Of a stretch of 64,000 bases of DNA, positions 8,698 through 49,616 are shown in pieces (position 1 is the stretch's first letter; each line of letters begins with the position of its first letter). The stretch comes from Phycisphaerae bacterium (GTDB taxonomy: Bacteria > Planctomycetota > Phycisphaerae > FEN-1346 > JAACEH01): NCBI GenBank assembly GCA_012729015.1, contig JAAYDY010000042.1, forward strand, positions 77,608-141,607, in the 5' to 3' direction. The translations under genes and the position numbers were made by a program. Below the pieces are notes generated by a model that saw only the letters and a program-made list of their open reading frames with translations, was not told where the DNA came from and searched no databases.

Positions 8698-8797
8698 GGG
8701 GTGCATTGACGTTTTGGGGGCCGTACCGTGGCATGGGCATCCTGCCCATGAGTGGCAGGGGCATCTTGCCCCTGCTTCCCCAAAACGTTAATGCACC
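8698..8797. repeat. MITE/REP-like intergenic element, copy 1 (orientation A)
   Basis: Terminal inverted repeats ggtgcattgacgttttgggg / ccccaaaacgttaatgcacc. Two internal hairpins. Matches copies at 25861, 40865 and 49521. Confidence 0.8.
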
Positions 8798-8912
8798 GTG
8801 CCCCACGCAACAGCTTGACAGGCGGCGGCGGGCCTTCTAGACTCGGCCGGCTCGGCGGAGGAGGCCATGGGGGGCTTCTCCGAGGGCCAGCCGTACCCAG
8901 GAGGCCGTTGTC

Positions 8913-9596
8913 GTGACCGACCAGGACCCATGGCGCAGCCGCACCGAGGACTATACCGCCGAGGAACGCGTGCGGCTGGACAAGTGCGCCGACCTGCTGC
9001 GCAAGGTCCAGTCGGGTCGCCCGGGGCCACTGGAGGTTCTGGACATCGGGTGCGGGTGCGGGGCCATGGGCCAGCTTCTCTCGGGCCCGCAATTCAGGCT
9101 CTCGGGCATCGAGCTGGACAGCCGCTCGGCCGACGAGGCCCGCCGGCACTACGCCGAGGTGGCGGTGCAGGATCTGACGGCCCGGTGGCCGTTTGACGAC
9201 CACCGGTTCGACGCCCTGCTGGCCCTGGCGGTTCTGGAGCACGTGGTGGATTACCGGGCCCTGCTCTGCCAGGCCGCCCGCGTGCTGAAGCCCGGCGGCT
9301 GCCTCATCGTCGAGGTGCCCAACCTCGGCTACTGGAAAGAAGTCCGCAAACTCCTGTTCCGCAAGCAGCCGCACTGGCTCAAGCAGTACGACCACGTACG
9401 CGGCTGGACGCTTGGCTATCTCAAGGTCGCGCTGGCTGAGCACGGGTTCGTGGCGGTCCATGCCGAGTGCGACCGGCTGAATCTGCCGCTGGTGCCGGCG
9501 TCGCGATGGATGGAGCGGCACCTGGCCTCCTGGGGACGCGTGCTCATCGTGCAACTGGTCAAGGCCAACGGGACGCCCACGTCATGCCGCGAGTGA
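8913..9596 (+). CDS. Class I SAM-dependent methyltransferase
   Basis: 227 aa. VLDIGCGCGAMG (motif I) ... LKPGGCLIVEVPN. Confidence 0.75.
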   Translation: MTDQDPWRSRTEDYTAEERVRLDKCADLLRKVQSGRPGPLEVLDIGCGCGAMGQLLSGPQFRLSGIELDSRSADEARRHYAEVAVQDLTARWPFDDHRFDALLALAVLEHVVDYRALLCQAARVLKPGGCLIVEVPNLGYWKEVRKLLFRKQPHWLKQYDHVRGWTLGYLKVALAEHGFVAVHAECDRLNLPLVPASRWMERHLASWGRVLIVQLVKANGTPTSCRE

Positions 9597-10453
9597 CCGT
9601 AGCCATCCCCACCTTCAATCGGCGCGAGCTGCTGCGCGAGGCGCTCGACAGCGTGTTCGCGCAGACGTGGACCGATTTCGAGGTGCTGGTGGTCGATGAC
9701 GGCTCGACCGACGGCACCGGGGAGATGGTTGCCGCGTACGGGCGTCCGGTGCGCTACGTGTACCAGGAGAATCGCGGCGACGCGGCGGCCCGCAACCGGT
9801 TGATCGCCGAGGCGCAATCGCCCCTGATCGCGTGGCTCGACAGCGACGACCGCTGGCTCCCCGAGAAGCTCCAGAGGCAGATCGCCAGGCTGCAGGGGGC
9901 CGACGAGCGGACCGTCGTGTACGGTCCCAAGCTCAGCATCGAAACCGACGGGCGGATCGCACAGAGCCGGCGGCCCGCGCCACCGTCGGGCCGGATCACG
10001 GCGGCGCTGTTCGACAACATCTTCATTCCCACGCCGAGCGTCCTGATACCGACGGCGCTGCTGCGCGAGGCCGGCGGATTCGACGAGCAGTACAGGGTGT
10101 GCAGCGACTACCGGATGTGGCTGGTGCTGTCGCTGACATGCACATTTCTGGCGATCCCGGAGCCGCTGGTGGCCTGCCGGCGGCACGTGGCGAGCCTGTC
10201 CAGCGCATCGTCGGCCAGCCAGGGCGCCAAAGCGACGATGCTCGAGGAGTTTTACTTCGAGCTGGGAGGCAAGGACGCGGTGCCGCGGCGTCAGGCGATG
10301 CGACGGTTGGCCGACCAGTGCCGCAAGACGGCCGTTCTGGCCCATCGCGAGGGGCGTCGCGAGGAAGCGTTCGCGTGGTACCGCAGGTCGCTGGGGCACC
10401 GGCTGACGGCCCGGTCGTGCCTCGGCTATGCAGCCCGGAGGCTGGGTCTGTAG
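9584..10453 (+). CDS. Family 2 glycosyltransferase
   Basis: MPRVTVAIPTFNRRELLREALDSVFAQTWTDFEVLVVDDGSTDGT ... DSDD. The start was chosen at the internal ATG (9584), which overlaps the methyltransferase stop by 13 nt. The ORF-track entry from 9467 is an N-terminal over-extension. Confidence 0.8.
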   Translation: MPRVTVAIPTFNRRELLREALDSVFAQTWTDFEVLVVDDGSTDGTGEMVAAYGRPVRYVYQENRGDAAARNRLIAEAQSPLIAWLDSDDRWLPEKLQRQIARLQGADERTVVYGPKLSIETDGRIAQSRRPAPPSGRITAALFDNIFIPTPSVLIPTALLREAGGFDEQYRVCSDYRMWLVLSLTCTFLAIPEPLVACRRHVASLSSASSASQGAKATMLEEFYFELGGKDAVPRRQAMRRLADQCRKTAVLAHREGRREEAFAWYRRSLGHRLTARSCLGYAARRLGL

Positions 10454-10481
10454 CGGCTGGACGCAGCGAGGCCGGTGCGTC

Positions 10482-12467: not shown

Positions 12468-12675
12468 AGCAACGCCCCCCCGAAGAGTGCGGCATGGACT
12501 ACGCCCGGCAACGGAGCATGACTACAGATGTGCCCAATCCACCCGTATTATTAGCTCGGCATAGGCAATGGGCAAACTTAATCCGGACTTGCGACACCTT
12601 CATACGACGAGGGCGAAACGGGCCACAAGGCCGGTTCCGCCCCCTGTTCGCGCCATGAAGCCCGTCGGTCGCCTG

Positions 12676-15600
12676 TCAGTGCGTCTCGCCGCCGGGCGAA
12701 TCGCCGGACGGCGGCTCGGTCTCGGCCGACGACGAATCGCCAGCCGTCGCCGGCTCGCTGCCGGACGACGCGTCCCCAGCGGTCGCCGGGACCGCCCGGA
12801 GCACCCTGGGCGCGGTCGTGGCCGCGCGGCGCCAGGCCGCAAACCGCGTGCCGAGGTCTCGCAACAGCTGCCAGACGCCCAGGACGACCGCCACCCCCGC
12901 GAGCAGCCAGATCAGATCCGTCAGATAGTCCGCGAAGCTATAGCCCAACAACGTCCGCACGGCCAGCAACAGTGCCGCCAGACAGAGCATTGCGAGGAAC
13001 TTGCCCACGGCTCCGGTCTTGCTCCTGGTCCACCACCACACGGCGGCCGCCAGCACCAGGACCACCGCGAGGCCGCGCGTCACCGAATGGAGGGCCGATG
13101 TCATGCAAAGCACATTGAGTTCCGGCGGCGTGCCCAGAGCCACCAGCGTCTGGAAGCAATAGCGGTTCATGGCGATGCCGGGAGCCGCGGCCCCAGGGTC
13201 GCGCAGGCGACGTTCGCCTGCCACCGCTTCGATCGGTGGCGCCGCGCTGGGCGCTTGCGACTCCCAGGATCCCACGTTGTCGCCGACACGGCGGTTGTGC
13301 TCCACCTGAATGCTCTGCATGTCGGCCATCTCGGCGGCCGAGCTGCTCAGCACCACCGCACGCTGAGGCGGAACAAACGACAGCCGCACCAGCCCATCGT
13401 CCAGCCGATCCACGCGGTTCAGGGTGCCGCCGTTGTAGACGATCACGTAGTCGTCCGGAAGCGAGAGCTCCCACCCGACGCGAAGGCTCGGCACCTCCGT
13501 CTGCGGCACCATCAGCGATAGGTTGCGCACGCTCCCGAGGGCCGACAGGCTGTAGCTGTAGCGGATGCGGACCTGGAATTCCTGCTGGCCGCGCCCGTGC
13601 CCGATGATGGGGATCATGGTGACGGTGCGACCGTCCTTCTGGCTGGTCACTGGGGTCTTCTGCTCGTCGTCCACGAAGGCGTGCCAGATGCGGGAGTCGG
13701 CGGGCAGGTAGAGTTCCAGATACTGCTTACGGAGGTTTCGCATCGAGTAGGCGGCGTCCGTGACGACGTTGCCGTCGTCGGTGATGACGGTGCTGAGGCG
13801 GCAGGTGCTGATGACGGCTACAAGCACCTCGGCCGGGTCGCGACGCACCGTCGTCAGGTGAAGCTCGAACGGCGCCGTCGGGTACCGGAAGCTCAGGGCC
13901 ATGGAACTGGTGATGCCCTGGGTGTAGTCGGACGGAATCTCGCGTTCGTCGATGGGGCGGACGCCCTTGGACTCCTCGGCGGCGCTGACCTCCAGGTCGG
14001 TCCGCGGCGCGACGGCCACGTAGCCGCGCTCGTGCTTGACGTCCAGCGCCCGGACGCCCACGAAGGTCAGCCGGTCGGCCGTCTTGTCGTCGGTCTTGAT
14101 CTGGTAACTGACGTTGACGCGAACCTGTCCCTTCTTCTTCGCCTGGAACGTCAGCGTCCAGACCGACGGCCTGGCGGGATCCTTCTCCTTGCTCTTGAGG
14201 TCGGCCGCGGTGATGTCCACGTTGTCGGCCCCGGCGGGCAACTCGACCCGCACGGTCTGGATGCCGGCGTACTGCACGAAGTACTTCACCGTGGCCCCGG
14301 CCTGGAGGTACGCCTCGCCGAGGGAGATGAAGTTGAAGACCTCGGCCGTGACATACGGCTCCACGCTCTCGACCTGCACGGCCGTCTTCCACGGCTGGAG
14401 GAAGTACTTGTAAGCCAGTGTGACGCCGCTCTGCTGCAACCGCTGCGGCAGTTCCTTCACGTCGATCTCGCGGATGTTCTCGGTGGCGGCCTCGGACGGC
14501 AGAAGCCTCATGCCTTCCTCGGGGCGGACGGCGACGTAGCCCGTCTCGCGACGGACGTCGAGGCAGCGGATGTTGGGCAGCGCGACGGGCTTGCCGGGCG
14601 CGGCCTCGGTGCGCATCTCGCCGACCATTTTCAGGGCATACGCCCCTTCGGTCTTGCTCAGCAGCACCACTTCGACGGTCCCTGCGGCCCGGTCGTGTTT
14701 CCAGTCGTCGATGCCGGCGCCTTCGAGGGTCAGCACCTGGAAGTCCTGCGGCACGTTGAGCCGCAGGGTGAAGACGCCCGCCTTGCGGATGTCGTAGGTC
14801 ACGGCGTAGTCCACCCGTGTGACGGCGGACTCGATGTCAACGAGGGTCTCGGCAGCGGCGACGATCTCGCTCTGGACCGAACTGATGTCCACCTCGAGCT
14901 GATAGGGATGCCGGATGTAGCGATAGGCCAGCGTGGCGGCCTGACGGTCGGGCATGGTCTCGGGCAGGTCGCGGAGGTTGATCTGCGTGATGCCCTCGCC
15001 GAGGGCCGGCTTGACGTTGGCGCCCGAGAGGGCCTCGATGGCGATGTAGCCGCGCTCGCGCTGCACGTCGAGCAGTTCGAGCCGCGGAATCGCCAGCCGC
15101 TCGCCCTGCATGGGCTTCTCGGTGGTCAATTGCAGAGTGTACTGCCGCTCGGCCTTGCTTCGCAGGTCCACGCTCAGCACCTGGTCGGTCAGGCTCCAGT
15201 TGTTGATGTCGGGGCCGTCGAGGTCGGCCAGCCGCACGTCGGGCCCGAGGCGGATACGGAAGCGGAAGACACCGGCGTCCTTGATCTGGTAGTTGACGGT
15301 CGTGACGGCGCGAACCGACTCGGCGGACACCTTGACCACAGAGAGGACTTCACCGGAGACCTTGGCCTCGACGACGCTGAGCCGCACGACAATGTCGATG
15401 GGGCGCTTGACGTACTTGAAGCCCAGGTGCAGTTGCTCGATCTGGACGCCGGCCGCCACGGCCGGCATCTCGCGCACGTCGATCTGCGACACGCCTTCGG
15501 CGCGGCCGGCCTCGGCCTTCAGCCCCTTGTCGGCCGCGATGGCCACCCATCCCGTCTCGCGGCTGACATCCAGGGCCTCGGGCGTCGCGACAGCCACCTC

Positions 15601-16578
15601 CGTGGCGCCGCCGGCCGACGGCTGGTCGATGGCCTGCTCCGTGGCCAGCGACAGGACGTAACGGTCGCTGATCGGGCCGAGCAGTTCGACCTTGAGCACG
15701 CGGTCGGCCCCCTGCCCCTGGATGTCCCAGGAGCGGATGTCCTGCCCGTCCACCTTCAGCAGCGTGGCCCGCTCGGGCAGACGAAGCCGCAGGACGCTGA
15801 CCTTGCCCTGGACGACGGAATACTCCACCTGCGTGTAGAGCCGCATCACGCCCAGGGCGAGTTGGGCCGTGGTCTTCTGCTCGGCGAAGACCTTGGCCTC
15901 CAGCGTGACGTCCGGGGCCTTGGGCGACCACTCGACGGTGAGTTCGCCGGTCCGGCCGCCGAACACCGTCACAGTCGTCTGCCCCGCCTTCTCCTCGGTC
16001 CGGATCGGCAGTTGCGGCGACAAGGCCACCTCCAGCGACGTACCGGGCAGCGTCACGGCCATGGTGGCCACCGTGGCGCCAATCTGCGGCAGACGCAGAC
16101 TCTTCTTCAGGTCTTTGCCGTCTACTCCCGCGGCAAAGCGGATCTCCAGCTCGTGCGATCCCTTGCCGACGCTGAGCAGGTGGTAGCCGTCGGCCTGCCG
16201 CACCAGTTGCACGCCGTCGCGTCCTTTCTTGATGGCCATGTCGGTCACTGCGATGGACGCCGGCAGCACGAGAACCTCGCGCACGTCCGCGATGTCGCTC
16301 TCGACCCAGAGCCGCATGACGCCTTCGGCCACGGTGCCGGCGACGGTCACCTGCACGTCGCTTCGCGTGAGCACGACATCCGTCACAGGCACCGGCACGG
16401 GCGGCTCGACCGGCGGCACGCGCGAGACCGGCGCCGTCGGGGCGACGGCTTCCTCCGCAAGGACGGTCTCCTGCGTCTGCGGCGCAACCGGATCCTCCTG
16501 GGCCAGCCCCAGTCCAGGCAGGACAGCCACCGCCACCATCGCCACCAGCCACATCACGCCGCGTCTGACGCACCTCAT
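12676..16578 (-). CDS. Giant secreted/membrane-anchored repeat protein (paralog 1)
   Basis: 1300 aa. Signal peptide MRCVRRGVMWLVAMVAVAVLPGLGLAQE. Four internal repeats of about 170 aa, each beginning LDV(S/Q/R/K)RE(T/R)GY(V/I)A(V/I). C-terminal cluster of 3-4 TM helices, then an acidic Ser/Gly-rich tail. GGGAGGA RBS 7 nt before the ATG. Diverse amino-acid usage, unlike the antisense ORFs. Confidence 0.7.
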   Translation of the reverse strand: MRCVRRGVMWLVAMVAVAVLPGLGLAQEDPVAPQTQETVLAEEAVAPTAPVSRVPPVEPPVPVPVTDVVLTRSDVQVTVAGTVAEGVMRLWVESDIADVREVLVLPASIAVTDMAIKKGRDGVQLVRQADGYHLLSVGKGSHELEIRFAAGVDGKDLKKSLRLPQIGATVATMAVTLPGTSLEVALSPQLPIRTEEKAGQTTVTVFGGRTGELTVEWSPKAPDVTLEAKVFAEQKTTAQLALGVMRLYTQVEYSVVQGKVSVLRLRLPERATLLKVDGQDIRSWDIQGQGADRVLKVELLGPISDRYVLSLATEQAIDQPSAGGATEVAVATPEALDVSRETGWVAIAADKGLKAEAGRAEGVSQIDVREMPAVAAGVQIEQLHLGFKYVKRPIDIVVRLSVVEAKVSGEVLSVVKVSAESVRAVTTVNYQIKDAGVFRFRIRLGPDVRLADLDGPDINNWSLTDQVLSVDLRSKAERQYTLQLTTEKPMQGERLAIPRLELLDVQRERGYIAIEALSGANVKPALGEGITQINLRDLPETMPDRQAATLAYRYIRHPYQLEVDISSVQSEIVAAAETLVDIESAVTRVDYAVTYDIRKAGVFTLRLNVPQDFQVLTLEGAGIDDWKHDRAAGTVEVVLLSKTEGAYALKMVGEMRTEAAPGKPVALPNIRCLDVRRETGYVAVRPEEGMRLLPSEAATENIREIDVKELPQRLQQSGVTLAYKYFLQPWKTAVQVESVEPYVTAEVFNFISLGEAYLQAGATVKYFVQYAGIQTVRVELPAGADNVDITAADLKSKEKDPARPSVWTLTFQAKKKGQVRVNVSYQIKTDDKTADRLTFVGVRALDVKHERGYVAVAPRTDLEVSAAEESKGVRPIDEREIPSDYTQGITSSMALSFRYPTAPFELHLTTVRRDPAEVLVAVISTCRLSTVITDDGNVVTDAAYSMRNLRKQYLELYLPADSRIWHAFVDDEQKTPVTSQKDGRTVTMIPIIGHGRGQQEFQVRIRYSYSLSALGSVRNLSLMVPQTEVPSLRVGWELSLPDDYVIVYNGGTLNRVDRLDDGLVRLSFVPPQRAVVLSSSAAEMADMQSIQVEHNRRVGDNVGSWESQAPSAAPPIEAVAGERRLRDPGAAAPGIAMNRYCFQTLVALGTPPELNVLCMTSALHSVTRGLAVVLVLAAAVWWWTRSKTGAVGKFLAMLCLAALLLAVRTLLGYSFADYLTDLIWLLAGVAVVLGVWQLLRDLGTRFAAWRRAATTAPRVLRAVPATAGDASSGSEPATAGDSSSAETEPPSGDSPGGETH

Positions 16579-16626
16579 CGTTCCGTCCTCCCAATCAGCG
16601 TTCCACTGAGACTCGATTCGTATCCT

Positions 16627-19600
16627 CTACCGCGCCGCCGCACGACCACGACGCAACCGCCGGGCCGCGCCGACCGCCGCCGTCCCCACGAGCCCCGCCA
16701 CCGCCACGGCGGCCACGGCGTACACCGCGTAACCGCTGCCGCTGCGAACGGCCTCGATGCGGAAGTGGCCCATATCGCCGCCGCTGAACCCACGGCCGAC
16801 GCGGCTGAACATGTACGGCAGCCGGTCGCCCTGCGGCAATTGCAGCCCGATCGGCAGGCTGCCCCGGGTGCGTCCCTCGCGGACCGGAGACAGCGACACG
16901 GCCTCCACGCCGCCGGCGTCCCACGGACGCCACCCCTCATCGGCGGCAGCCGCCGAGGGCCCGTTGGCCTTGCCATGCGGCACGCCCTCGATCCCGCGAG
17001 CCTCTGACTCCGGCCCGGGCTGATCCGGCTTCGCGGTCGCGACGCCACCCGCCGCGGCAGCCGGCACATCTGTGGCGGCGCCATACCCGACCCCGGACCC
17101 GGTCTTGGTCCCGGCCTCCAGCTTGAAGACGAAACTCGACTGAGGCGTCGTCTGCACTTCCGTCTTCGTGACGCCGGCCGCTTCCTGGGCTTGGCGGAGC
17201 ACGTCGGCCGCCTGCCCCTTGAAGGCCTTGTCCAGATCCTTCTTCTCGTCGGCCCGCGTGATGTCATCCCGCGGCTCCTCCGCCGCGCCTGGCTGGGCCC
17301 CTTCTGGGGCCAGAGGCAGATCCTCGCCGCGCAGGGAGCGGGACGCTCTGCCGGAGTCCCGGTCCGCTTCGTCCCAGCCGTAGAACTTCTCGGCAAGCTT
17401 CATCCGCCGCTGGGCTTCCAGGTTCAGCAGGTTCGAGTCCTGCCGGGCGCGGCTCTTGCCGCCCAGCATCTTTGCCTTCTCGTAGCTCTCGGAGTAGGTT
17501 CTCAGGTCTTCTTCGGTGGGTTTCAGGTCTTCCTCGACGATGGGGTTGTTCACCTCGCCCTGCCGGTAAAGCTCGCGGGCCAGCTGGCGCCGCTGCCCCG
17601 GCTCCACGTGCTGCACCTCGTTTCCCGGTCGCACCACCGTATAGCCGTCAGCGCCCACGTCAGCCAGGAGCACGCCCGTCACGTCCTTCTGCTCCCCGGC
17701 CCTTCCCTGCGGTTGTCGCAGCGCCATGTTGAGGCTCTCGCCGAAGTAGTTGGTGCCCGATTTCTTGAGCCGCTCCACAACGCCCGACTCCACCAGTTTC
17801 TCGCGCTCAAGCTCCGCCAGGTCGGCCGGGTAGACATCAAAGGTGCTTCGGTATGCCTCCAGGGCCGCGCCGACCACCTCCAGGTCGCGTCGCGCCCAGA
17901 CGCCGGTCCAGCCGCCCTCGGCGGCGTCAACCGACACCTCACTGTACTCGACCCGCCCCATCATCGGCGGCGACTTCACCCCCAGCGCCGGCATCAAGAG
18001 CGCCGCGAGAATGAGCATGACCGGAATTGCCGCAAGCATCATGAGGGCTGCCCACCTCAGTCCGGGGCGTTTCCAGACGTAGCGGGCCGCGCGTGCCGGA
18101 GGCGATACCGCGCGGCGCAGCAGCCTGCCGCCGCGACGGACCATCAGCCAGACCGCCGCAGCCGCCACCGCCGTCGCCGCCACGACCGCCAGAACGGTCA
18201 GCACCACGTCCGCCACGGGCTGCACCGACGGCCACACCTGTTCCCATCGCCGGCTGTCGGGGCCGAGCATCTGTCGGCTCACCGGCACGTCGGCATCGGG
18301 CGGGCGGATCACCATCCGCATGTTGCCCTCGTCGCCGACCAGGTCCGGCCGCAGGGCGTACCCCTGCGGCATGAAGACCTCCCATCCCATGCTCCCCGTG
18401 GCGACTTCGACCGGCGGGGTCTGGAAATTCATGTCTACGGCGCGGCCCTCCAGGGGCGGCAGTTGCTCGGCGTAGACCACCGTCAATTCGAACGCCCCGT
18501 CGCGGCGTTCGCGCTGGAGCAGCGGAATCCGGTAGGCCCCGGGGCGGTCGCCTTCGACGGGCTTGACGGGCCGGCCGTCCACATAGGCGGCCCACAGTTG
18601 CCGACGGTCGGGCAACTCGATGGGGGCGAACTGCTGCCGCGTGCTCTGGACCGTCAGCGTCATGAACGTCATGGCGGTGCCGTCGCGGTTGATCATGGTT
18701 TGCAGGAGGCAGTCGCTCGCCTGGAGCTTCAGCACGTCTGCCTCGCCGAGCTGGGCCAACCGCAGCGACAGGCCCCAGTCCTGCGGCGAGAGGCCCGAGT
18801 ACTCGATCGTTCGGACCACCGGAACGTCGGCCGACATGGCCTCGGCCCCGCGTTCCACCGTTCGGGCGTGACCCGACGGCGCGACGGTCACGTCCACCTG
18901 ATCGCTCTGCTTGCCGACGTGGAGGACGCCCTTGTGTCCGGCGGCTTCCAGGACGCGCGGCTCCTCGTGGGTCACGTCCGTGGCCTCGCGGTCCACCAGG
19001 CGGTCGTACGTCACGCGCAGGCGGTACTGGCCCTTGCGGCGCGTCGCCAGCGCGATCGTCCACGTGTTGGAATCGGCGTCCAGGCGGCGGCCGCTGATGT
19101 CCTCGCCCTCGATCCACGAGTTGACGGCCCACGACGGGAGCTTGACGCGCAGGGACGACACCCCGGCTTCCTGAATGGTGCAGATCAGCTGGGTTTCGGC
19201 ACTGATGTCGCCCTGGCCAACCCGGAGCAGCGTCTCGGCCGCAACGGCCACCAGCGGCACGAGGGGTTCCACGTGGAACACTCCGGCCCACGGCTCCGTG
19301 AAATCGTAATGGAGGGCCCGCGACGCCGCGTCGCCGGCGCCTGCGCCGGGCAACGCCGGCGATTGCCGCCGGAATGAGCGGATGGCGGCCTCGGTCGATT
19401 CGCGAAGCGAACGCACTTCGACCACGCTCAGCTTGAGGTCGGACCCGGGCGTCAGCGCCACCTGCCCGCGCGTCCGCAGCGCCACGGGGACGTCAATCGA
19501 CTCGATCCGCAGGGGCCGCGTGTAATCCACCGCCTGGGTGGTCTCGACGATCAGCGAGGTGGTTCCCGTCAGGCCGTCGGTCAGGGTCACCGAAAGGGCG

Positions 19601-21354
19601 GCCTTGTCCTGCCCCGTGGCGGGCGTCAGCCGCCACGCAGCCACTCGCGGCCCGGTGACTCGCAACGGCGTCAGCGACGAAGGCACCAGCAGCACAAGGT
19701 CGAAAATCTGGTCGTCAGCGACAGCCAGATGAATCGTGGTGGCCCGCGTCAGGGCGTCCTGCTCCAGAATCACGAGGTCGTTCATGTCCGCCGTGACGCG
19801 GGCTCGAATCTGTTCGGTCTCGACCGCCAGCGTGCCGCCGCCCTGGCGATAGCGGTAGGCGAGCCTCGCTCCGCCGCGGCGCACCCACTCGGGCAGTTCG
19901 CTGATGTCGATCTGTTCGGTCAACGTGGCGTGGTGGTGGCGCAACTGGACGCCCTCGCCGGCCGAGACGCCGACAACGCCCTCCTGGGAGACCACGTCGG
20001 CCGGTTGCAACCGGGGAATGACCAGTCCGTTGATCTTGCGGACGTCCTGGTGGGTGCGGACGGAGAGCCGGGTCGGCCCGAGGCGCGAGTTGTCGAACCG
20101 CACGCGAAGCTGCCGGTCGTCGCCGACGTCCCAGTCGCGCACGGCATCGCCTGCGACGTCGAGCACCGCGGCGCCGTCGGGCAGGCCGATGACCACGCCG
20201 CGGATGGGGCGCCCCTGGACCTGGTACTCCATGTCGCTGTGCAGAGTAACGACGCCGGCTTCGATCACGGCCAGGCTCTGGACGGCGACTGTGACCCGGG
20301 GCTGACGCAGGCTGCCGCGAAGACGGATGTCCACCGGCAGACGGGAGTAGTCGTAGCTGAGGGCGGCGACGGCATCGCCCTGATTCATGCGCCGCGTGGC
20401 GCCGGTGACGGCGTCCTGCTCAAGTACCATCGCCTCGGCGGCAAGGAATCGCACCTGGCCTTCCTGGACCGCGGCTCCGGCGACGGCCACGGGCACATGG
20501 ACGAAGGCGGTCGGCAGCGGCGGGAGCAGTTCCTCGCTCTGGACCACCAGGACCATTTTGTCCAGCACCCTGGCCGCCAGGCGGACGTCGGCCGTGCGCC
20601 CGTCGCCGGCGACGGCCCACGAGAGGACGTTGCTGCCGGCGATGCTTCGCACGGCCACGCCTTCGGGAATCGCCAGCGAAAGGCGCTCGATGAGGCCGCG
20701 CTGCACGGTGCAGGTGATGACCTCGCGTCTGGAGGCCAGGCCGGGACGGACCTGGACGAGTGCCTTGTTGTGGGCGGAGAACGCGGAGCCGGCCGCCTCG
20801 GCGACGACCGCCCTGTCCCACTGAAGGGCGAAGGCGGGTGTCAGCGGCGCCAGCAGGCTCACGGTCCGAACGCCCTCGGCCACCGCATCGGACGTGACGA
20901 TACCCTCGGGCGAGGTGATCAGGCGGCCCGAATCGCCCGGCAATCGCAGTCGGACTGCCACACGGTTGGCGGGCACACTGGGCAGTTCAATGCGGCTCGT
21001 ACCCGGCGTCGGGGAAAGCCTGCGGGCGAGGAACTTCACGGTCAATCGATAATCGCCCGGCTCGCGGGCGACGAACACGTAGGTGTCGCCCTGGGCAACC
21101 ACGCGGCCGCCGTCGGCCTGCCAGTCGAGCAGCGCCGTGTCGCGCGGCAGCAGCGGCACGACCTGGTCGGCGGCGTGGCAAAAGATGCTGAACCCGGCGG
21201 TCACGTCGCACTGGGCCTGTTCGCCGGCGGCATCGACGGCGTAGTCGGCGGTGGCGATCACCTGCGGTCGGCCCGGCAGGCCGCCCATGGGGATACACGA
21301 ACAGACAGCGGTCAGGCCCAGCAGGGCCGCGGCGAGTCGGACGGGCACTCTCAT
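16627..21354 (-). CDS. Giant secreted/membrane-anchored repeat protein (paralog 2)
   Basis: 1575 aa. Lipoprotein-like N-terminus (LTAVCSC). Repeat modules homologous to paralog 1, for example the pre-TM block LWAAYVDGRPVKPVEG... versus IWHAFVDDEQKTPV... Two TM helices, then a charged coiled-coil-like tail of about 450 aa and a final hydrophobic segment ending RRLRRGRAAAR. GGAGGTG RBS 5 nt before the ATG. 48-nt gap to paralog 1. Confidence 0.7.
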   Translation of the reverse strand: MRVPVRLAAALLGLTAVCSCIPMGGLPGRPQVIATADYAVDAAGEQAQCDVTAGFSIFCHAADQVVPLLPRDTALLDWQADGGRVVAQGDTYVFVAREPGDYRLTVKFLARRLSPTPGTSRIELPSVPANRVAVRLRLPGDSGRLITSPEGIVTSDAVAEGVRTVSLLAPLTPAFALQWDRAVVAEAAGSAFSAHNKALVQVRPGLASRREVITCTVQRGLIERLSLAIPEGVAVRSIAGSNVLSWAVAGDGRTADVRLAARVLDKMVLVVQSEELLPPLPTAFVHVPVAVAGAAVQEGQVRFLAAEAMVLEQDAVTGATRRMNQGDAVAALSYDYSRLPVDIRLRGSLRQPRVTVAVQSLAVIEAGVVTLHSDMEYQVQGRPIRGVVIGLPDGAAVLDVAGDAVRDWDVGDDRQLRVRFDNSRLGPTRLSVRTHQDVRKINGLVIPRLQPADVVSQEGVVGVSAGEGVQLRHHHATLTEQIDISELPEWVRRGGARLAYRYRQGGGTLAVETEQIRARVTADMNDLVILEQDALTRATTIHLAVADDQIFDLVLLVPSSLTPLRVTGPRVAAWRLTPATGQDKAALSVTLTDGLTGTTSLIVETTQAVDYTRPLRIESIDVPVALRTRGQVALTPGSDLKLSVVEVRSLRESTEAAIRSFRRQSPALPGAGAGDAASRALHYDFTEPWAGVFHVEPLVPLVAVAAETLLRVGQGDISAETQLICTIQEAGVSSLRVKLPSWAVNSWIEGEDISGRRLDADSNTWTIALATRRKGQYRLRVTYDRLVDREATDVTHEEPRVLEAAGHKGVLHVGKQSDQVDVTVAPSGHARTVERGAEAMSADVPVVRTIEYSGLSPQDWGLSLRLAQLGEADVLKLQASDCLLQTMINRDGTAMTFMTLTVQSTRQQFAPIELPDRRQLWAAYVDGRPVKPVEGDRPGAYRIPLLQRERRDGAFELTVVYAEQLPPLEGRAVDMNFQTPPVEVATGSMGWEVFMPQGYALRPDLVGDEGNMRMVIRPPDADVPVSRQMLGPDSRRWEQVWPSVQPVADVVLTVLAVVAATAVAAAAVWLMVRRGGRLLRRAVSPPARAARYVWKRPGLRWAALMMLAAIPVMLILAALLMPALGVKSPPMMGRVEYSEVSVDAAEGGWTGVWARRDLEVVGAALEAYRSTFDVYPADLAELEREKLVESGVVERLKKSGTNYFGESLNMALRQPQGRAGEQKDVTGVLLADVGADGYTVVRPGNEVQHVEPGQRRQLARELYRQGEVNNPIVEEDLKPTEEDLRTYSESYEKAKMLGGKSRARQDSNLLNLEAQRRMKLAEKFYGWDEADRDSGRASRSLRGEDLPLAPEGAQPGAAEEPRDDITRADEKKDLDKAFKGQAADVLRQAQEAAGVTKTEVQTTPQSSFVFKLEAGTKTGSGVGYGAATDVPAAAAGGVATAKPDQPGPESEARGIEGVPHGKANGPSAAAADEGWRPWDAGGVEAVSLSPVREGRTRGSLPIGLQLPQGDRLPYMFSRVGRGFSGGDMGHFRIEAVRSGSGYAVYAVAAVAVAGLVGTAAVGAARRLRRGRAAAR

Positions 21355-21420: not shown

Positions 21421-21449
21421 CACGTGACGGGACGGGTGCACGTCACGTG
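21421..21449. promoter_or_regulatory. Perfect 9-bp inverted repeat CACGTGACG-N11-CGTCACGTG (candidate operator)
   Basis: Seen directly. Lies immediately upstream of the putative -35 of the giant-gene operon. Confidence 0.3.
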
Positions 21450-21828
21450 GTGTGGGTGCGCGGGCTCTCGCACCGCAGAAGCGACGGTGCCATCGTTGGA
21501 GCAACGACAGAACCGGGGCCAAGGCGTGCTTCCCTCTCCGCCCGACCCGATGCTCACTCGGCACACCTTGGTCTCCGGCTTCGCAGGAGCCTCCAAGATG
21601 GCACCCCGCGGCAGCGCACTGCTGGCGACCGTTTTGCGAGGCCATGAAGGGCGGCTCGCCCCTCGACGAGGCTCGGGACTTGCAGCGAGCCGCTCCTACG
21701 GTGAGCGCGGCGGGAGGGGTCAAGGCGTTCGACCCTCACCGCCCCGAGCGGCGCTCGGGGCACCTCTCCCTGCAAGCAGGGCGAGGGGTGCAGGAGCGTG
21801 CTGCGCACGCAGGGTTGACAGAGGAACC

Positions 21829-21948
21829 GCGTGGGTCCGGGGGACCCACCCTACCCGTGTTCCTCGCCAGTCCGCGTGGGTCCGGGGGACCCACCCTACC
21901 CGTGTTCCTCGCCAGTCCGCGTGGGTCCGGGGGACCCACCCTGCCCGC
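21829..21948. repeat. 45-bp direct tandem repeat, about 2.6 copies, each with a GGGTCC-GGG-GGACCC hairpin
   Basis: gtgggtccgggggacccaccctacccgtgttcctcgccagtccgc repeated at 21831, 21876 and 21921. Intergenic, just downstream of the stop of the 21986..23059 gene. Confidence 0.7.
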
Positions 21949-21985
21949 GACCCGCGGTGTTCATGGCCGCCGGCTCTGTGTCGAG

Positions 21986-25839: not shown

Positions 25840-25860
25840 GCGACCCCGAGGCGGCACTCC

Positions 25861-25961
25861 TGGGGTGACTGAACGTTTCGGGGAAAGCGGGGGCAGGATG
25901 CCCCTGCCACTCACGGGCAAGATGCCCGTGCCACGGTACACCCCCAAAACGTTAATGCACC
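25861..25961. repeat. MITE/REP-like intergenic element, copy 2 (orientation B)
   Basis: gaacgtttcgggg...ggcaggatgcccctgcc...gggcaagatgcccgtgcc...ccccaaaacgttaatgcaccc. It is the reverse complement of copy 1. Confidence 0.8.
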
Positions 25962-26137
25962 CACACTCCTGGAGCAATTGACAGGCTCCGCTGATTCGCG
26001 CACAATCCCCGGCACCTCTTGAGCCTGACAGCGTTGAAGGCTAAACTCTCGACCATGGGATTGGCCGTGTGGGCCAAACGTGGTCGGATTTCGTAGTCTC
26101 CCTCTTCCGGGGGAGAAACCTTGAAAGGTCATCAGGG

Positions 26138-37816: not shown

Positions 37817-37853
37817 CGACAGTCCCCACATCAACCATCGTGGCCGCGGGCGG

Positions 37854-39407: not shown

Positions 39408-39458
39408 CCGCCAAGGCGCCGTCATGGCAATGCGCAGTGCGGTCCATACAGTTTTCTC

Positions 39459-39488
39459 TTGACGTTTGATCGTTGGGAAAACTAGGAT
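39459..39488 (+). promoter_or_regulatory. Sigma-70-like promoter TTGACG-N18-TAGGAT
   Basis: About 90 bp upstream of the ATG at 39579. Confidence 0.3.
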
Positions 39489-39578
39489 ACGGTGGAGTGT
39501 GAGTGGAAGTTCCCATGGGCGGTCTTCGCATCGATTTCCCGGCATCGAGAGCCGAGTCATTTCCGAGAGGAGTCTGAG

Positions 39579-40766: not shown

Positions 40767-40864
40767 GCAAACACATTCCCCTGACCAGGGGCGTCGTTCT
40801 CACGGGCCGCGCGGCAAGCACCGCGCGGCCCGGCTGTTGCGCCCTGCGGCGACGACGGCCCGAA

Positions 40865-40963
40865 ACGCATTAACGTTTCGGGGGCCGTACCGTGGCACGG
40901 GCATCTTGCCCGTGAGTGGCAGGAGCATCGTGCCCCTGCTCTCCGCGTAACATTGGTGCACCC
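40865..40963. repeat. MITE/REP-like intergenic element, copy 3 (orientation A, right end degenerate)
   Basis: gcattaacgtttcgggggccgtaccgtggcacgggcatcttgcccgtgagtggcagg... Confidence 0.75.
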
Positions 40964-41048
40964 GTTCGCCCTTGAAGTCGGCAGGCGGCTCGGATAGACT
41001 GGCACGAATCGTGGGCCGTTGTGGGCGACGGCCGCCGGAGAAACGGCC

Positions 41049-41528: not shown

Positions 41529-41574
41529 GCAGCGCGAGACATTCAACGGAGCAGTCTGGAGTTCGAGGAGTCTG

Positions 41575-44137: not shown

Positions 44138-44146
44138 GGACAAACC

Positions 44147-46140: not shown

Positions 46141-46259
46141 CGCTTCTGCGTTTAGGAACGCGCAGCTCACGCTTTGGGCCGAGGTGTGGGGCCGACAACG
46201 GGTGGCCCCGGCCGCAAGAGTGCGAGACACTTGCACGAGCAATCGAGAGGACACGTCCC

Positions 46260-47243: not shown

Positions 47244-47332
47244 TCGCCGCCGCCTCCGGCGACCGACGCGGCAACACGCCGTCGGGTGGCTGGGGGGCAT
47301 GGCCGTGGGCCCGTGTCGCGTGGCCTCGCCCC

Positions 47333-48406
47333 CTACTCCGTTTGGCCCCGCGCCACGATCTGCCGGGGACTGAAGGGCTCCTTCAAACCCCACTCCAGGA
47401 ACGTTTCGATCACCGTGTAGTGAATCTCCAGCACCTCGTCGAAGGACCACTCAGCGGCGGCCGACTGCTCGAACGTCACGGTCAGGCCGCCCGAAGCCAT
47501 CACACAGGCCGTATTCAGGTTGATGCCGCCGCGCTGCTCGATCGGGTAGACCGGCGCAGGACGCAGGCCCTTCGCCTCCAGGGCATCGAAGACGCGCTGC
47601 TTGTAGACGTGGACGCGATGGACATGCAGCGGATAGGCCAGCAGCGAATCACCGAGCACCTGCCCGCCGATGGTGTGCGAGTGAAGATTGAGGACCAGGT
47701 CGGCCTGCTCGTCGGCCACGAGCTTCAGCACGCCGCGGGCCTCCGGCGTCCGCAGGTCGCCCGGACAACAGTCGTGCTGGATGTTGTACCCGTCGGCGTT
47801 CGGATAGCCGCCGGGGTGCCCCACCCGCTCCAGCGGCAATGGAGCATATTCCTTGCACGCCGGGTAGCCGATCTCGGTTCCGTCGGTCCAGTAGCCCTGG
47901 CTGGCACGGCGGAACTGGTCGAGGTCGGCGCCGCGCAGATGATCCGGGCTGACCGCGCGGCCGTCCATGTTCACGCATGGCAGGATCACCACGCGGTACC
48001 GCGACATCAGGTCCAGCAGATGCGGCCGGGGGTTGCCCTTCAGATCGCGTCCCGTCTCCAGCAGCGAGAGCATGTTGACAGCGCCGGCGACCGATTCGGT
48101 CTCCGCTCCATGCACGCCGCACAGGAGCATGACCACCTGCGGATCGTTCTCGCTGGTTCGGTACGACGCCATGGTGCGCGAGTTCGACCCGATGCCCCAC
48201 GTGGCCGTGCCCGGCCGCGCCTGCGGCGGCCCGTAGGCCACCGCCCACACGGGAAACCCTCCCGGCGTCGTGGCAATCCGGCGGACCTCTCCTTTCGCGG
48301 CGGCCTCCACTGCGGTCGTGACCTCCTCCGGACGGACCTGCCACCAGTCCGGACGCCTTTGGAGGCCGGGAATCTCAAATCGATCGTATCTCTGCCCTGC
48401 GCTCAT
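47333..48406 (-). CDS. M14-family zinc carboxypeptidase-like protein
   Basis: Start MSAGQRYD, with a perfect AAGGAG RBS 8 nt upstream. HGAETE Zn-binding motif. The ORF track extends to 48664. Confidence 0.65.
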   Translation of the reverse strand: MSAGQRYDRFEIPGLQRRPDWWQVRPEEVTTAVEAAAKGEVRRIATTPGGFPVWAVAYGPPQARPGTATWGIGSNSRTMASYRTSENDPQVVMLLCGVHGAETESVAGAVNMLSLLETGRDLKGNPRPHLLDLMSRYRVVILPCVNMDGRAVSPDHLRGADLDQFRRASQGYWTDGTEIGYPACKEYAPLPLERVGHPGGYPNADGYNIQHDCCPGDLRTPEARGVLKLVADEQADLVLNLHSHTIGGQVLGDSLLAYPLHVHRVHVYKQRVFDALEAKGLRPAPVYPIEQRGGINLNTACVMASGGLTVTFEQSAAAEWSFDEVLEIHYTVIETFLEWGLKEPFSPRQIVARGQTE

Positions 48407-49389
48407 TCGAAGTACTCCTTGATGACTTCCGCCAGATCGTCGCGCGATGCGACCTTGCCCATCGCCATGCGCGACTCGCGCGCACGGTCGATGCCTTTGC
48501 TGTAGAACATCCCGAAACGTCGCATGATGCGGATCGCGCTGTAATCGCCCAACTCGTCGCGGAGCATCTCGTAGTGTTGCCACATGCACTCGACTCGCTC
48601 GGCTGGCGACACCGGTTCGACGGGCAGGCCGGCATCCAGGGCCATGGCCTCGCGGAAGATCCACGGATGCCCCACCGCTCCGCGAGCCACGGCCACCCCC
48701 ACGATCCCGCCGCCGCGCAGGCGATCGAGAATGGACGGCGCGTCGAGAAGGTCGCCGCTGCCGAAGACGGGCATCCTCAGCCGTCCGGCCATCTCGACCG
48801 CAAACGACCAGTCGGCCTGGCCGTGATACAACTGATCGACCGTGCGGCCATGGATCGTGGCGGCATCCACGCCCAGCTCGTCCGCCCCCGCCAGCAGCCG
48901 CTCCACCTGCTCGCGGCCGGCCGCGGACGCGTCGTACCCGCGCCGAACCTTCACCGTCAGCGGCAGCCTGGTGGCACGACGCATGCCAGCGAGAATCTCC
49001 AGGCCAAGGTCGGGCGTCCGGAGCATCGCCCCGCCGTTGCCCTTGGCAATCATCTTCCGCACCGGGCAGGCCATGTTCACGTCGATCAGGTCGAAGCAGC
49101 CCATTTGTTCGATGCGGGCCGCCGCGTCGGCCATCATCAACGGGTCGGCCCCGAACACCTGGACGCCAAGGGGATGATCGTCCTGGGCGATTCGGATCAT
49201 CCGGCGCGTCTTCCTGCTGGGACGCAGGATCTCATAGGCGCTGATCATCTCCGTCACGGCCATCGCGGCGCCCTGCTGCCGCGCGAGCATCCGCAGGCCG
49301 CGCTGCGTGTAGCCGGCCATCGGAGCCATGACGAGATTGTTCTTCAGGGCCAGTGTTCCGATGCTCACCGGCCGTATCAGGCGATTCAT
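48403..49389 (-). CDS. dusB: tRNA-dihydrouridine synthase
   Basis: LVMAPMAGYTQRGLR ... DLIDVNMACP ... a Dus TIM barrel. The stop overlaps the downstream carboxypeptidase start (ATGA). Confidence 0.85.
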   Translation of the reverse strand: MNRLIRPVSIGTLALKNNLVMAPMAGYTQRGLRMLARQQGAAMAVTEMISAYEILRPSRKTRRMIRIAQDDHPLGVQVFGADPLMMADAAARIEQMGCFDLIDVNMACPVRKMIAKGNGGAMLRTPDLGLEILAGMRRATRLPLTVKVRRGYDASAAGREQVERLLAGADELGVDAATIHGRTVDQLYHGQADWSFAVEMAGRLRMPVFGSGDLLDAPSILDRLRGGGIVGVAVARGAVGHPWIFREAMALDAGLPVEPVSPAERVECMWQHYEMLRDELGDYSAIRIMRRFGMFYSKGIDRARESRMAMGKVASRDDLAEVIKEYFE

Positions 49390-49520
49390 AGGGCAAGGTT
49401 TTGCCCGAGCGACGGTCCTTTGTCAAGCACCGAACATCAAATCTCACACGAGCAGGCGCCCGCATGACGCCACGGACCAGCCGCCGCCAGCCAACACTCG
49501 ACCGCAAAGGCAAGGCGGGC

Positions 49521-49616
49521 GCATGAACGTCTCGGGGAAAGCAGGGGCAGGATGCCCCTGCCACTCACGGGCAAGATGCCCGTGCCACGGGACAGCCCCA
49601 GAACGTTAATGCACCC
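49521..49616. repeat. MITE/REP-like intergenic element, copy 4 (orientation B)
   Basis: gcatgaacgtctcggggaaagcaggggcaggatgcccctgccactcacgggcaagatgcccgtgccacggg...gaacgttaatgcaccc. Confidence 0.8.

Follow-up and report, generated by a model that had tools for sequence, protein, structure and literature searches.

What kind of element is repeated four times, always between genes, in a 64-kb stretch of Phycisphaerae DNA (the window), and what determines where its copies lie? With the outermost G/C of the terminal inverted repeats (TIRs) included, the copies of this ~100-bp element are bounded at 8699-8798, 25863-25962, 40863-40963 and 49517-49616, which shifts by only 1-3 nt the positions given for the four copies in an earlier note on this DNA. 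An nhmmer profile built from the four copies recovers exactly these four from the 64-kb window (E values of 1e-29 to 1e-31), with no further copy above noise, and a repeat search of the window finds the same four independently (repeats D1, D5 and I1-I4). As the earlier note had described, two copies lie in each orientation (8699-8798 and 40863-40963 one way, 25863-25962 and 49517-49616 the opposite way) and all four are intergenic, two of them between divergent genes (7605-8639(-)/8913-9596(+) and 48403-49389(-)/49749-50723(+)) and two between co-directional genes. The element measures 98-103 bp across copies and contains no plausible ORF. Its copies, with the parts of copy 1 given in full, are as follows:

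8699..8798, + strand: MITE copy 1, 100 bp, with the left TIR at 8699-8719 (GGGTGCATTGACGTTTTGGGG) and the right TIR at 8778-8798
8728-8731 (tag GTGG) and 8732-8750 (hairpin), + strand: REP unit 1, within MITE copy 1
8752-8755 (tag GTGG) and 8756-8774 (hairpin), + strand: REP unit 2, within MITE copy 1
25863..25962, - strand: MITE copy 2, 100 bp, inverted relative to copy 1
40863..40963, + strand: MITE copy 3, 101 bp, the most decayed, with the left terminus AAACGCATT and not GGGTGCATT
49517..49616, - strand: MITE copy 4, 100 bp

The TIRs are 21 bp long (GGGTGCATTAACGTTTTGGGG and CCCCGAAACGTTAATGCACCC) and enclose two hairpins, much as first described (a TIR of about 20 bp, here 20/21 bp, around one 8-bp and one 9-bp stem, each with a 3-nt loop). 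Pairing is maintained in 84% of TIR cells across 29 distinct copies, and in 99.6% and 96.5% for the two hairpins across 30 unique copies, that is, the four window copies together with metagenome loci. When folded as single strands, three of the four window copies give z values of -3.7 to -8.1 relative to shuffled sequences, none of which equals them; the decayed copy 3 reaches only -2.1 and -2.3. Mean identity is lower in the TIRs (0.88 and 0.83) than in the REP core (0.95). Recently active MITEs usually show the opposite pattern, and this one suggests that the core is constrained or homogenised. Across the whole window, Rfam covariance models recover only two tRNAs at gathering score, and at copy 1 the strongest hit (E<=10) reaches 18 bits, where the threshold is 58.6 bits.

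The element is a MITE, a non-autonomous mobile element with TIRs, target-site duplications (TSDs), and filled and empty alleles. The TSD is 9 bp long: direct repeats abutting GGGTGC...GCACCC agree at 8 or more of the 9 positions in 15 of the 30 unique copies, whereas mismatched pairs of left and right flanks reach this level in only 6 of 870 cases. The duplications around the window copies are listed here; the left TSD of copy 3 is not recognisable.

8690..8698, unstranded: copy 1 left TSD, TGCCTCACG, an 8/9 match with the right TSD
8799..8807, unstranded: copy 1 right TSD, TGCCCCACG
25854..25862, unstranded: copy 2 left TSD, GCACTCCTG, which matches its partner at 9/9 when the register is moved by 1 nt
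25963..25971, unstranded: copy 2 right TSD, ACACTCCTG
40964..40972, unstranded: copy 3 right TSD, GTTCGCCCT; the empty allele of L140/L141 has GTGCGCCCT once
49508..49516, unstranded: copy 4 left TSD, AGGCAAGGC, 9/9 with its partner; the empty allele of L140/L141 has AGGCGGGGC once
49617..49625, unstranded: copy 4 right TSD, a 9/9 match to the left TSD

A relative with 98% IspF identity (L140/L141) is cleanly without copies 3 and 4, its flanks aligning at ~90% identity, and the ispF site occupied by copy 3 is element-free in five graded relatives with IspF identities of 98-87%. The copy 1 site is empty in another relative, L142, where the left flank is not alignable; DNA homology between the window and L142 (86% over 12.6 kb) breaks off where copy 1 ends on its right side. 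The element junctions show no conserved tetra- or pentanucleotide. The earlier note had suggested a non-autonomous mobile element, to be checked by looking for insertion polymorphism and TSDs, and both were found, in the clean empty sites of the 98%-IspF relative and in the 9-bp duplications that mark half of the unique copies.

At least 26 further insertion sites lie in metagenome contigs beyond the window, which bears out the idea of a multi-copy family as opposed to a local duplication. Full copies were absent from 185,579 GTDB representative genomes in a core-pattern search, and from ~146 kb of fetched loci of close relatives (some of them duplicate contigs); the family therefore looks lineage-specific, in agreement with the genome-specific family first envisaged. 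The bioreactor metagenomes that contain L138, a contig that shares the ispF region of the window, also supplied many of the 30 sites; these are independent as sites, yet many or most of the copies may belong to one lineage.

The hairpin pair inside the TIRs is a head-to-tail dimer of REP units that carry GTAG or GTGG tags, all on one strand. In total, 163 units fit the pattern GT[AG]G + CA[CTG]GG[GC]C[AG] + TC[TC] + complement, with the tag GTGG in 90 and GTAG in 71 and its strand constant relative to the TCY loop. Stems are of 8-9 bp and loops are TCT or TCC, within the range for GTAG-type REPs (stems of 6-13 bp, loops of 2-4 nt), and 11 perfectly complementary stem variants occur among the 163 units; within the family, a U-A to C-G stem swap splits 17:11. 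Every TIR pair examined encloses REP units. TIR-less dimers of the same units are also found, after stop codons in other metagenome contigs, some of which share samples with full element copies. The internal units match the definition of the GTAG superfamily, for which GTGG is listed as an accepted variant (PMC3733652). Judged by their tags and stem-loops, the internal hairpins are GTAG-type REPs, and the REP label fits the interior only: the earlier idea of a REP family stands for the tagged units and falls for the element as a whole, which has TIRs and 9-bp TSDs. A REPIN was rejected, as the two units lie in tandem, head-to-tail, and not as an inverted pair in one long hairpin. No RAYT gene, the partner with which such units would form a REPtron, was seen among the window genes scanned.

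The main feature of the element, absent from the earlier note's reading, is its link to promoters. About two thirds of copies sit at one fixed distance upstream of a promoter-like site, in the layout TIR end, 9-bp TSD, 7 nt, -35 hexamer (TTGnnn), 16-18 nt and -10 hexamer, promoters being called by match to the sigma-70 consensus only. Among the 60 flanks of the 30 unique copies, TTG is found at offset 17 from the element end in 17, against a background of ~0.6 per offset (P ~2e-20), and TAnnnT at offsets 38-41 in 21, against ~0.1 per offset (P ~7e-30). Elsewhere in the flanks, and within the TSD, no position is informative. Within the window, four sites match the sigma-70 consensus at 10 or more of 12 positions; three adjoin an element and the fourth is a tRNA promoter. 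The promoter-like sites beside the window copies are:

8815..8843, + strand: TTGACA-17-TAGACT, 7 nt after the copy 1 TSD; element-free but conserved in L142
8648..8676, - strand: divergent TTGCAT-17-TATAAT, at offset 23 from the opposite end of copy 1
25978..26006, + strand: TTGACA-17-CACAAT, 6 nt after the copy 2 TSD
40972..41000, + strand: TTGAAG-17-TAGACT, promoter-like site of the ispF-cysS-ruvCAB cluster; conserved and element-free in the five graded relatives
49633..49662, + strand: TTGACA-18-TACAAT, 7 nt after the copy 4 TSD; unchanged in the empty allele

The site at 8815..8843 precedes a methyltransferase gene (8913-9596) and a GT2 glycosyltransferase, its divergent counterpart at 8648..8676 a TPR/RNA-polymerase-alpha-CTD-domain gene (7605-8639(-)), that at 25978..26006 a sugar-phosphate isomerase/epimerase-like gene (ORF 26069-26911), and that at 49633..49662 a TPR-protein gene (49749-50723).

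Copy 3 sits 8 nt closer to its promoter-like site than is usual, and about 5-6 copies have no promoter in register. At the canonical offsets, -35 and/or -10 features occur in about 13 of the 15 copies with a TSD of at least 8/9, and no population of young, randomly placed copies is present among these 15. Each element end faces a promoter twice in the window and metagenome copies split similarly; this lack of orientation bias fits symmetric TIR ends combined with a one-sided target signal. A second MITE-like family, with other TIRs and the same REP units (n = 8), shows no promoter peak, which ties the promoter effect to this one TIR type. Relatives have the same -35 and -10 hexamers in their empty alleles, and the promoters thus predate the element.

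On this sequence evidence, the element is a MITE of an uncultured Phycisphaerae lineage that is probably mobilised in trans by a DDE-type transposase and directed to sigma-70-type promoters. The 21-bp TIRs would be the ends recognised by this putative enzyme, encoded elsewhere, whose class is suggested by the 9-bp TSD, and which would make a 9-bp staggered cut in a target that spans about -51 to -43 and is separated from the -35 hexamer downstream by 7 bp. The REP dimer is carried as cargo, either element end can face the promoter, and the core promoter is left intact. The transpososome may read the promoter through the bound RNA-polymerase holoenzyme, with sigma region 4, the alpha-CTD or an upstream DNA bend as possible contacts, or by direct recognition of the -35 hexamer. 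No transposase with matching TIRs was found among 30 window proteins scanned for transposase domains or in the fetched loci, where all TIR pairs lie ~80 or ~135 bp apart and none wider. Promoter targeting, if true, would let the element insert without harm in a gene-dense genome, and would be an unusual behaviour for a bacterial transposon.

A fixed spacing could also be the work of selection, if copies inserted at random between genes and those at the exact distance survived or were favoured since the element serves the promoter. The element might, for example, provide an UP-like or activator-binding site in its A/T-rich TIR stretch AAAACGTTAAT (about -58 to -68), or its palindrome might shield the promoter from transcription or supercoiling that comes from upstream. 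Insertion does put the region's only A/T-rich stretch just upstream of the alpha-CTD zone, three of the four best consensus promoters in the window carry the element, and the strong conservation of the REP core (99.6% and 96.5% paired; identity of 0.95 against 0.83-0.88 in the TIRs) suggests constraint at the level of the host. However, single-nucleotide precision, with 17 of the 20 flanks that have TTG at offsets 16-18 having it exactly at 17, is hard to obtain from randomly placed insertions, and secondary peaks at a distance of one helical turn are missing. The presumably youngest copies, those with perfect TSDs, already show the register; neutral insertions elsewhere between genes ought to survive, yet few are found; and relatives manage without the element at the same promoters. 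Selection is an unlikely source of the register, and the spacing more probably reflects target choice.

Two readings that start from the hairpins fare worse against the ends and the setting of the element. One is a REP/BIME-type unit moved by a RAYT or an IS200-family tyrosine (HUH) transposase, with the palindrome as a preferred target or structural accessory. The internal hairpins do have the tag and stem-loop format of RAYT-associated REPs, and according to PMC3733652 the REP dimers of Anabaena variabilis and Halothiobacillus neapolitanus lie in long palindromes of which, as here, there are no 'empty' ones. Yet empty alleles are without the whole 100-bp unit, TIRs included, the TIRs are flanked by 9-bp direct duplications, which HUH transposition does not make, the TIR-less REP dimers occur in a different context, after stop codons, and the head-to-tail REPs differ from a REPIN, in which the pair is inverted. 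This origin is very improbable, and the proposal that the whole element is a TnpB/IS200/RAYT substrate is not supported, as those systems use neither TIRs nor target duplications. An IS200/IS605-type or TnpB-associated palindromic element (PATE) was likewise rejected: such elements have no TIRs, make no target duplication, carry sub-terminal hairpins and insert 3' of a short specific motif, whereas here there are TIRs, 9-bp TSDs and no conserved junction motif. It is scarcely credible that the element is a transcription terminator or mRNA-stabilising 3' structure whose proximity to promoters is a by-product of short intergenic regions, despite the high stability of the hairpins, the position of two window copies after co-directional genes and that of TIR-less REP dimers directly after stop codons. 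Neither hairpin is followed by a T-run on either strand and the terminator scan omits both, which also tells against the termination signal suggested earlier; no transcript should run through the two window copies, out of four, that separate divergent genes and lie upstream of both promoters; at the ispF site, terminator-like hairpins are already present upstream in filled and empty alleles alike; and short intergenic regions cannot explain a fixed 17-nt offset.

Insertion at promoters, as favoured here, would have parallels in the IS1202 family, REP-targeting IS and Ty3, which share a fixed distance from a protein-bound landmark and a harmless landing site. In eukaryotes, Ty3 integrates at Pol III start sites. 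The IS1202 family inserts 5 bp from the XerC site of dif/pdif (PMC10132070), and REP-targeting IS are target-specific insertion sequences (PMC1525189). What sets the present element apart is that its landmark would be the sigma-70 promoter, with insertion at about -51 to -43, for which a literature search found no bacterial precedent.

The element resembles bacterial MITEs such as Correia/NEMIS of Neisseria, ERIC, RUP, Nezha and MITEAba12 (70-300 bp, with TIRs of 15-30 bp) in being non-coding, multi-copy and intergenic, in its TSD and long-hairpin fold, and in the mobilisation in trans by a TIR-recognising transposase proposed here. It differs in that its interior is a REP dimer, more conserved than its TIRs. 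Correia elements create promoters at their own ends and do not home to existing ones, and none of these MITEs is known, from our literature search or otherwise, to hold a fixed base-pair register to a host -35 hexamer. Bacterial MITEs are described in general terms in PMC3733652 and PMC3184786.

The palindromes of Anabaena variabilis and Halothiobacillus neapolitanus likewise hold a REP dimer within a long inverted repeat, with no REP-less palindromes; the sections of PMC3733652 that treat them give consensus sequences only, read them as REPs inserted in a palindromic target, and mention no TSDs, empty sites or promoter relationship. With GTAG REPs, BIMEs and REPINs and their RAYTs (Nunvar 2010, PMC2817692; Bertels and Rainey 2011; Di Nocera 2013, PMC3733652), the element's hairpins share GC-rich stems of 8-9 bp, complementary stem variants, a 3-nt TCY loop and a 5' GT(A/G)G tag, GTGG being the variant reported for Opitutus terrae, also of the PVC group. 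Like most REPs, the TIR-less dimers are found downstream of genes. Unlike REPs, the units here travel as cargo in a TIR/TSD transposon, in a head-to-tail arrangement reported as rare among REPs, and the MITE copies lie upstream of promoters, divergent regions included, whereas REPs are found mostly between convergent or co-directional genes.

Each of the four copies in the window, whose sites were read and aligned, is a unit of approximately 100 bp in which a terminal inverted repeat (TIR) is followed by a short linker, hairpin 1, hairpin 2 and a second TIR. The TIRs are 21 bp long (GGGTGCATTAACGTTTTGGGG) and begin GGGTGCATTAACG..., hairpin 1 has the form CA(C/T)GGGCA-TCY-TGCCC(G/A)TG and hairpin 2 the form GCAGGGGCA-TCY-TGCCCCTGC.

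Copies of the element in the window
8699-8798, (+) strand, MITE copy 1
25863-25962, (-) strand, MITE copy 2
40863-40963, (+) strand, MITE copy 3
49517-49616, (-) strand, MITE copy 4

Run against the 64-kb window, an nhmmer profile of the four copies recovers them (E 1e-29 to 1e-31) and no other copy above noise, and a repeat search recovered the same four independently. All are intergenic on a GC3-based gene map supplemented with Pfam matches, two lying between divergent and two between co-directional gene pairs, so that the copy number, the TIRs with two hairpins and the intergenic placement described in the earlier note are borne out. Compared with shuffled sequence, three copies give much more stable folds on either strand (z -3.7 to -8.1), and none of their shuffles is as stable; for the decayed copy 3, z is only -2.1 and -2.3, and 4-5 of 200 shuffles equal it. 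The G+C content of the window is 66.6%. No Rfam family matches the element, whether at gathering or at permissive thresholds.

When 185,579 GTDB representative genomes, a set that does not include the source genome, were scanned for exact matches to a hairpin-junction pattern, only one locus matched: L001, from a Planctomycetia MAG, which has the two hairpins without TIRs. A looser junction pattern found more than 120 metagenome contigs among the matches listed, and these fall into four groups. Group A is the full TIR element, with 30 unique insertion sites among the matches listed, the window's four included; many come from the bioreactor metagenomes Ga0123328/9, also the source of contig L138, on which the ispF region of the window is found, and many or most of the 30 may derive from one lineage. 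Group B is a separate MITE-like family from sediment metagenomes, with the TIR GCCCGTTGAAAAAG and four hairpin units of the same type. Group C comprises tandem arrays and TIR-less dimers, and group D chance matches within coding DNA, including all 14 viral matches. The viral contigs (L122-L135) were rejected as carriers because 14 of 14 matches share a flank unrelated to the element (...TTCGACCCCTGCAACTCATGGGCTGATGCCGGGCCGAT...), which resembles a conserved coding stretch (...FDPCNSWADAGPI..., translated by eye).

Orthologous regions, taken via graded IspF homologues, provide filled and empty alleles. Copy 3 is present in the contigs with 100% identical IspF (L136-L139), as is copy 4 in the two that reach far enough (L136, L137). 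Both are cleanly absent from L140/L141 (IspF 98% identical; 120-kb contig), where the intergenic surroundings align at ~90%, and the ispF site also lacks the element in relatives at 92, 91, 88 and 87% IspF identity. In L142, a relative with 86% DNA identity over 12.6 kb, collinearity ends where copy 1 has its right edge (8801), and at this site the promoter is kept and the element is absent; since the upstream flank does not align, the empty site gives partial support only. For copy 2 no empty site was found: the nearest adjacent-gene homologue outside the source lineage is 70% identical, and an 84% partial match ends at a contig end exactly at the site. No MITE copies or REP units of the searched form were found in ~146 kb of the relatives' loci (some of them duplicate contigs), and copies are present in the source lineage; the family therefore appears to have expanded within the window's own lineage.

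The insertions also left target-site duplications (TSDs). Copy 4 has the 9-mer AGGCAAGGC on both sides, and the empty allele holds AGGCGGGGC once; the pairs for copies 1 and 2 are TGCCTCACG/TGCCCCACG and GCACTCCTG/ACACTCCTG. In 15 of the 30 unique copies, 9-bp direct repeats matching at 8 or more positions directly abut GGGTGC...GCACCC, a level reached by only 6 of 870 mismatched flank pairs. The earlier note had read the element as a MITE and proposed comparing strains for insertion polymorphism and searching for TSDs; the TIRs, the TSDs and the empty alleles, with copies 3 and 4 polymorphic between the source lineage and L140/L141, bear this reading out, and the 30 sites among the matches listed, on metagenome contigs as well as in the window, speak against the local duplication that it had named as grounds for refutation.

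The combination of TIRs and a 9-bp TSD is the hallmark of DDE transposases, and to our knowledge IS200/IS605 and RAYT enzymes use neither TIRs nor TSDs. The best-supported reading is therefore that the MITE is moved by a DDE-type transposase; DDE families known for 9-bp duplications, such as IS1, IS4 or IS256, would be candidates. The RAYT, IS200 or TnpB partner put forward in the earlier note finds no support where the complete element is concerned, given its TIRs and 9-bp TSDs, and mobilisation by a RAYT fails the tests run here. Pfam finds no transposase or RAYT domains in 30 window proteins. A search of all loci for TIR pairs at long spacing gave no autonomous IS with the MITE's TIRs; the pairs lie ~80 bp apart, or ~135 bp in a few longer variants with extra hairpin units. 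A terminator role, likewise suggested for the whole element, also fails the tests run here.

The main finding, which the earlier note missed, is the fixed placement of the element relative to promoters, which are defined here by consensus matches only. In a sigma-70 consensus scan, four sites in the window score at least 10/12, and copies 1, 2 and 4 each have one of these directly on their right.

Promoter-like sites in the window
8815, TTGACA-17-TAGACT, promoter-like site right of copy 1
25978, TTGACA-17-CACAAT, promoter-like site right of copy 2
after copy 3, TTGAAG-17-TAGACT, promoter-like site
49633, TTGACA-18-TACAAT, promoter-like site right of copy 4
53678-53705, (-) strand, perfect consensus TTGACA-16-TATAAT before tRNA-Arg(TCG) and tRNA-Lys(CTT)

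The last of these is the only top-scoring site in the window without an element, and the occurrence of a perfect consensus before tRNA genes indicates that the canonical sigma-70 consensus applies in the source organism. Across the 30 unique copies the geometry is constant: the TIR end is followed by the 9-bp TSD, 7 nt, the -35 hexamer, 16-18 nt and the -10 hexamer. In 17 of the 60 flanks, TTG starts precisely 17 nt beyond the ...GCACC end, against a background of ~0.6 per offset (binomial P 2e-20; 1e-18 when corrected for 55 offsets), and TAnnnT is found at offsets 38-41 from the element end in 21 of 60 flanks as against 5 at the other 46 offsets (P ~7e-30). There is no information at the remaining flank positions of the 30 copies, TSD included. 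Judged from these hexamers, the element sits at a fixed place, 7 bp upstream of the -35 of pre-existing predicted promoters. Either of its ends may face the promoter (twice each in the window, with a similar split among metagenome copies), and a crude ORF scan mostly places an ORF start within ~60-200 nt on the promoter side. Group B, which has the same REP units and other TIRs, has no promoter-offset peak (n=8). In the open-access literature we found no report of a bacterial MITE, IS or other transposon that keeps a constant distance from the -35 hexamer. At the metagenomic locus L056 (4682-4780), the element lies in register upstream of a promoter which, judged by eye, seems to be followed by the start of a tRNA gene.

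The promoter could in principle be a part of the element, a possibility that was rejected because the TSD separates the -35 hexamer from the TIR, because the 7-nt and spacer sequences are unrelated among copies, and because empty alleles retain the promoter. Empty alleles have the same hexamers at three sites, those of ispF (five relatives), the TPR gene and the methyltransferase gene. The predicted promoters are therefore older than the insertions, and were neither brought nor created by the element. The genes downstream of copies 1-4 (a methyltransferase/GT2 pair, a sugar-phosphate isomerase-like gene, ispF-cysS-ruvCAB and a TPR protein gene) share no functional theme, which makes a shared regulon unlikely. 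In pre-insertion coordinates the 9-bp target lies at about -51 to -43, a zone that in E. coli promoter complexes is taken up by the alpha-CTDs, next to sigma region 4 on its upstream side. Insertion displaces everything upstream of ~-52, and an A/T-rich stretch of the TIR now occupies ~-58 to -68.

Such a register could reflect either the choice of target or selection for a promoter function that depends on spacing. Selection would explain a preferred distance; against it stand the precision of the spacing to a single nucleotide, the lack of secondary peaks one helical turn away, the small number of off-target intergenic copies, and the fact that copies with perfect or near-perfect TSDs, presumably young ones, are already in register. 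On these grounds target choice is favoured, and the reading best supported overall is of a DDE-type MITE that carries REPs as cargo and is directed to promoters when it inserts. How it might be directed is more speculative. The transposase would dock on promoter-bound RNA polymerase holoenzyme, through sigma region 4 or the alpha-CTD, or on a DNA bend that the holoenzyme induces, and would be guided to integrate at -51 to -43; we regard this guidance by the transcription machinery as possible but rather doubtful. Four in-register copies (metagenomic loci L048, L050, L009 and L104) have a good -10 and a -35 without TTG, which mildly favours the polymerase-promoter complex as the signal over direct reading of TTGACA. 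A clue to direct reading might have been that the target mimics the element's own end, TTRACG lying 7 nt from the TIR tip and TTGACA 7 nt from the TSD. This was discounted because the 7-nt segments are dissimilar and the motif in the TIR varies among copies (TTAACG, TCAGCG, TTCACG). A polymerase-guided MITE transposase would parallel, in bacteria, the way in which Ty3/Ty1 are targeted to Pol III genes.

Because bacterial genomes are gene-dense, the landing site decides whether a transposon survives, and the known safe-site strategies in bacteria are attTn7, dif, REP, attC and terminators. If the present reading is true, a family that settles at a set distance ahead of sigma-70 promoters would add a new one. 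It would also mean that one palindrome has re-wired the upstream control regions of many genes at once, the DNA beyond ~-52 being shifted by 100 bp with the same palindrome in its place, and that the element marks promoters in an uncultured phylum lacking mapped promoters. The filled and empty alleles provide a natural test of the effect of a REP-bearing palindrome beside a promoter.

On the same strand, a GTGG or GTAG tag stands directly before each internal hairpin, and the 163 units in the loci follow GT[AG]G + CA[CTG]GG[GC]C[AG] + TC[TC] + exact complement, with 11 complementary stem variants. The hairpins thus classify as REPs by tag and stem-loop form, which fit the GTAG superfamily definition of Di Nocera et al. 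(2013; PMC3733652). The same paper records Planctomycetes among the taxa with REPs, GTGG as a tag variant in Opitutus terrae, head-to-tail dimers as rare, and, for Anabaena variabilis and Halothiobacillus neapolitanus, long palindromes that enclose REP dimers, none of which was found empty (PMC3733652). All REP units in the window lie within the four MITE copies, where they are seen riding as cargo of a TIR transposon; such cargo may account for the older reports of REP dimers within long palindromes. TIR-less head-to-tail dimers directly follow stop codons at metagenomic loci L065, L068 and L107, the classical REP position being just past the stop codon.

In the 30-copy alignment mean identity is 0.95 in the REP core as against 0.88 and 0.83 in the TIRs, opposite to what MITEs usually show. 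Pairing is 99.6% in hairpin 1, which has a U-A/C-G swap at 17:11, 96.5% in hairpin 2 and 84% in the TIR stem. Conservation and pairing in excess of those of the TIRs suggest that constraint or homogenisation acts on the hairpins. A few copies (L107 3151-3252 and L009) have the same substitutions in the left and right TIR. TIR elements with REP cargo may be a recurring theme in Planctomycetota.

The group B elements come from freshwater sediment (L004, L017, L032, L058, L059, L109, L111, L119; for example, L004 1473-1619) and are ~147-153 bp long, with one 235-bp variant; their TIRs (GCCCGTTGAAAAAG / CTTTTTCAACGGGC) enclose four GTAG-tagged REP hairpins of the MITE's type. Spacer-free tandem REP pairs form BIME-like clusters in other metagenomic Planctomycetota-like contigs, with a 49-bp period and at least 3 copies at L010 648-780 and a ~135-bp period at L006 6168-6340. 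In L001 (CAIYVX010000037.1) the TIR-less GTAG REP dimers lie at 5771-5837 and 6676-6724, in purine-rich (aagaag) spacers of co-directional genes and ~15-20 nt short of the next start codon; a G-C pair replaces A-T at the loop-closing position, a compensatory change.

The product of 7605-8639 (-), beside copy 1, is a protein of 344 aa that has TPR repeats at its N-terminus together with two RNA-polymerase alpha-CTDs (PF03118, E 1.6e-39, two stretches), and is alpha-CTD-like and not RpoA; its position is curious in that the element's landing zone in promoters is the alpha-CTD zone. Collinearity with the relatives L142, L143 and L144 ends at 21426, where a lineage-specific segment of the window therefore starts. 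Some 400 bp past this point, at 21827-21961, is a perfect 45-bp tandem repeat (CCGCGTGGGTCCGGGGGACCCACCCTACCCGTGTTCCTCGCCAGT) with two identical copies, one at 80% and its own hairpin. Two adjacent giant genes, 12676-16578 (-) and 16627-21354 (-), encode proteins of 1300 and 1575 aa, neither of which matches Pfam; the first gene has an internal periodicity of ~510 bp, with repeats at 14010, 14526, 15036 and 15537. Homologues are ~39% identical and bear the JGI name 'prepilin-type processing-associated H-X9-DG protein'.
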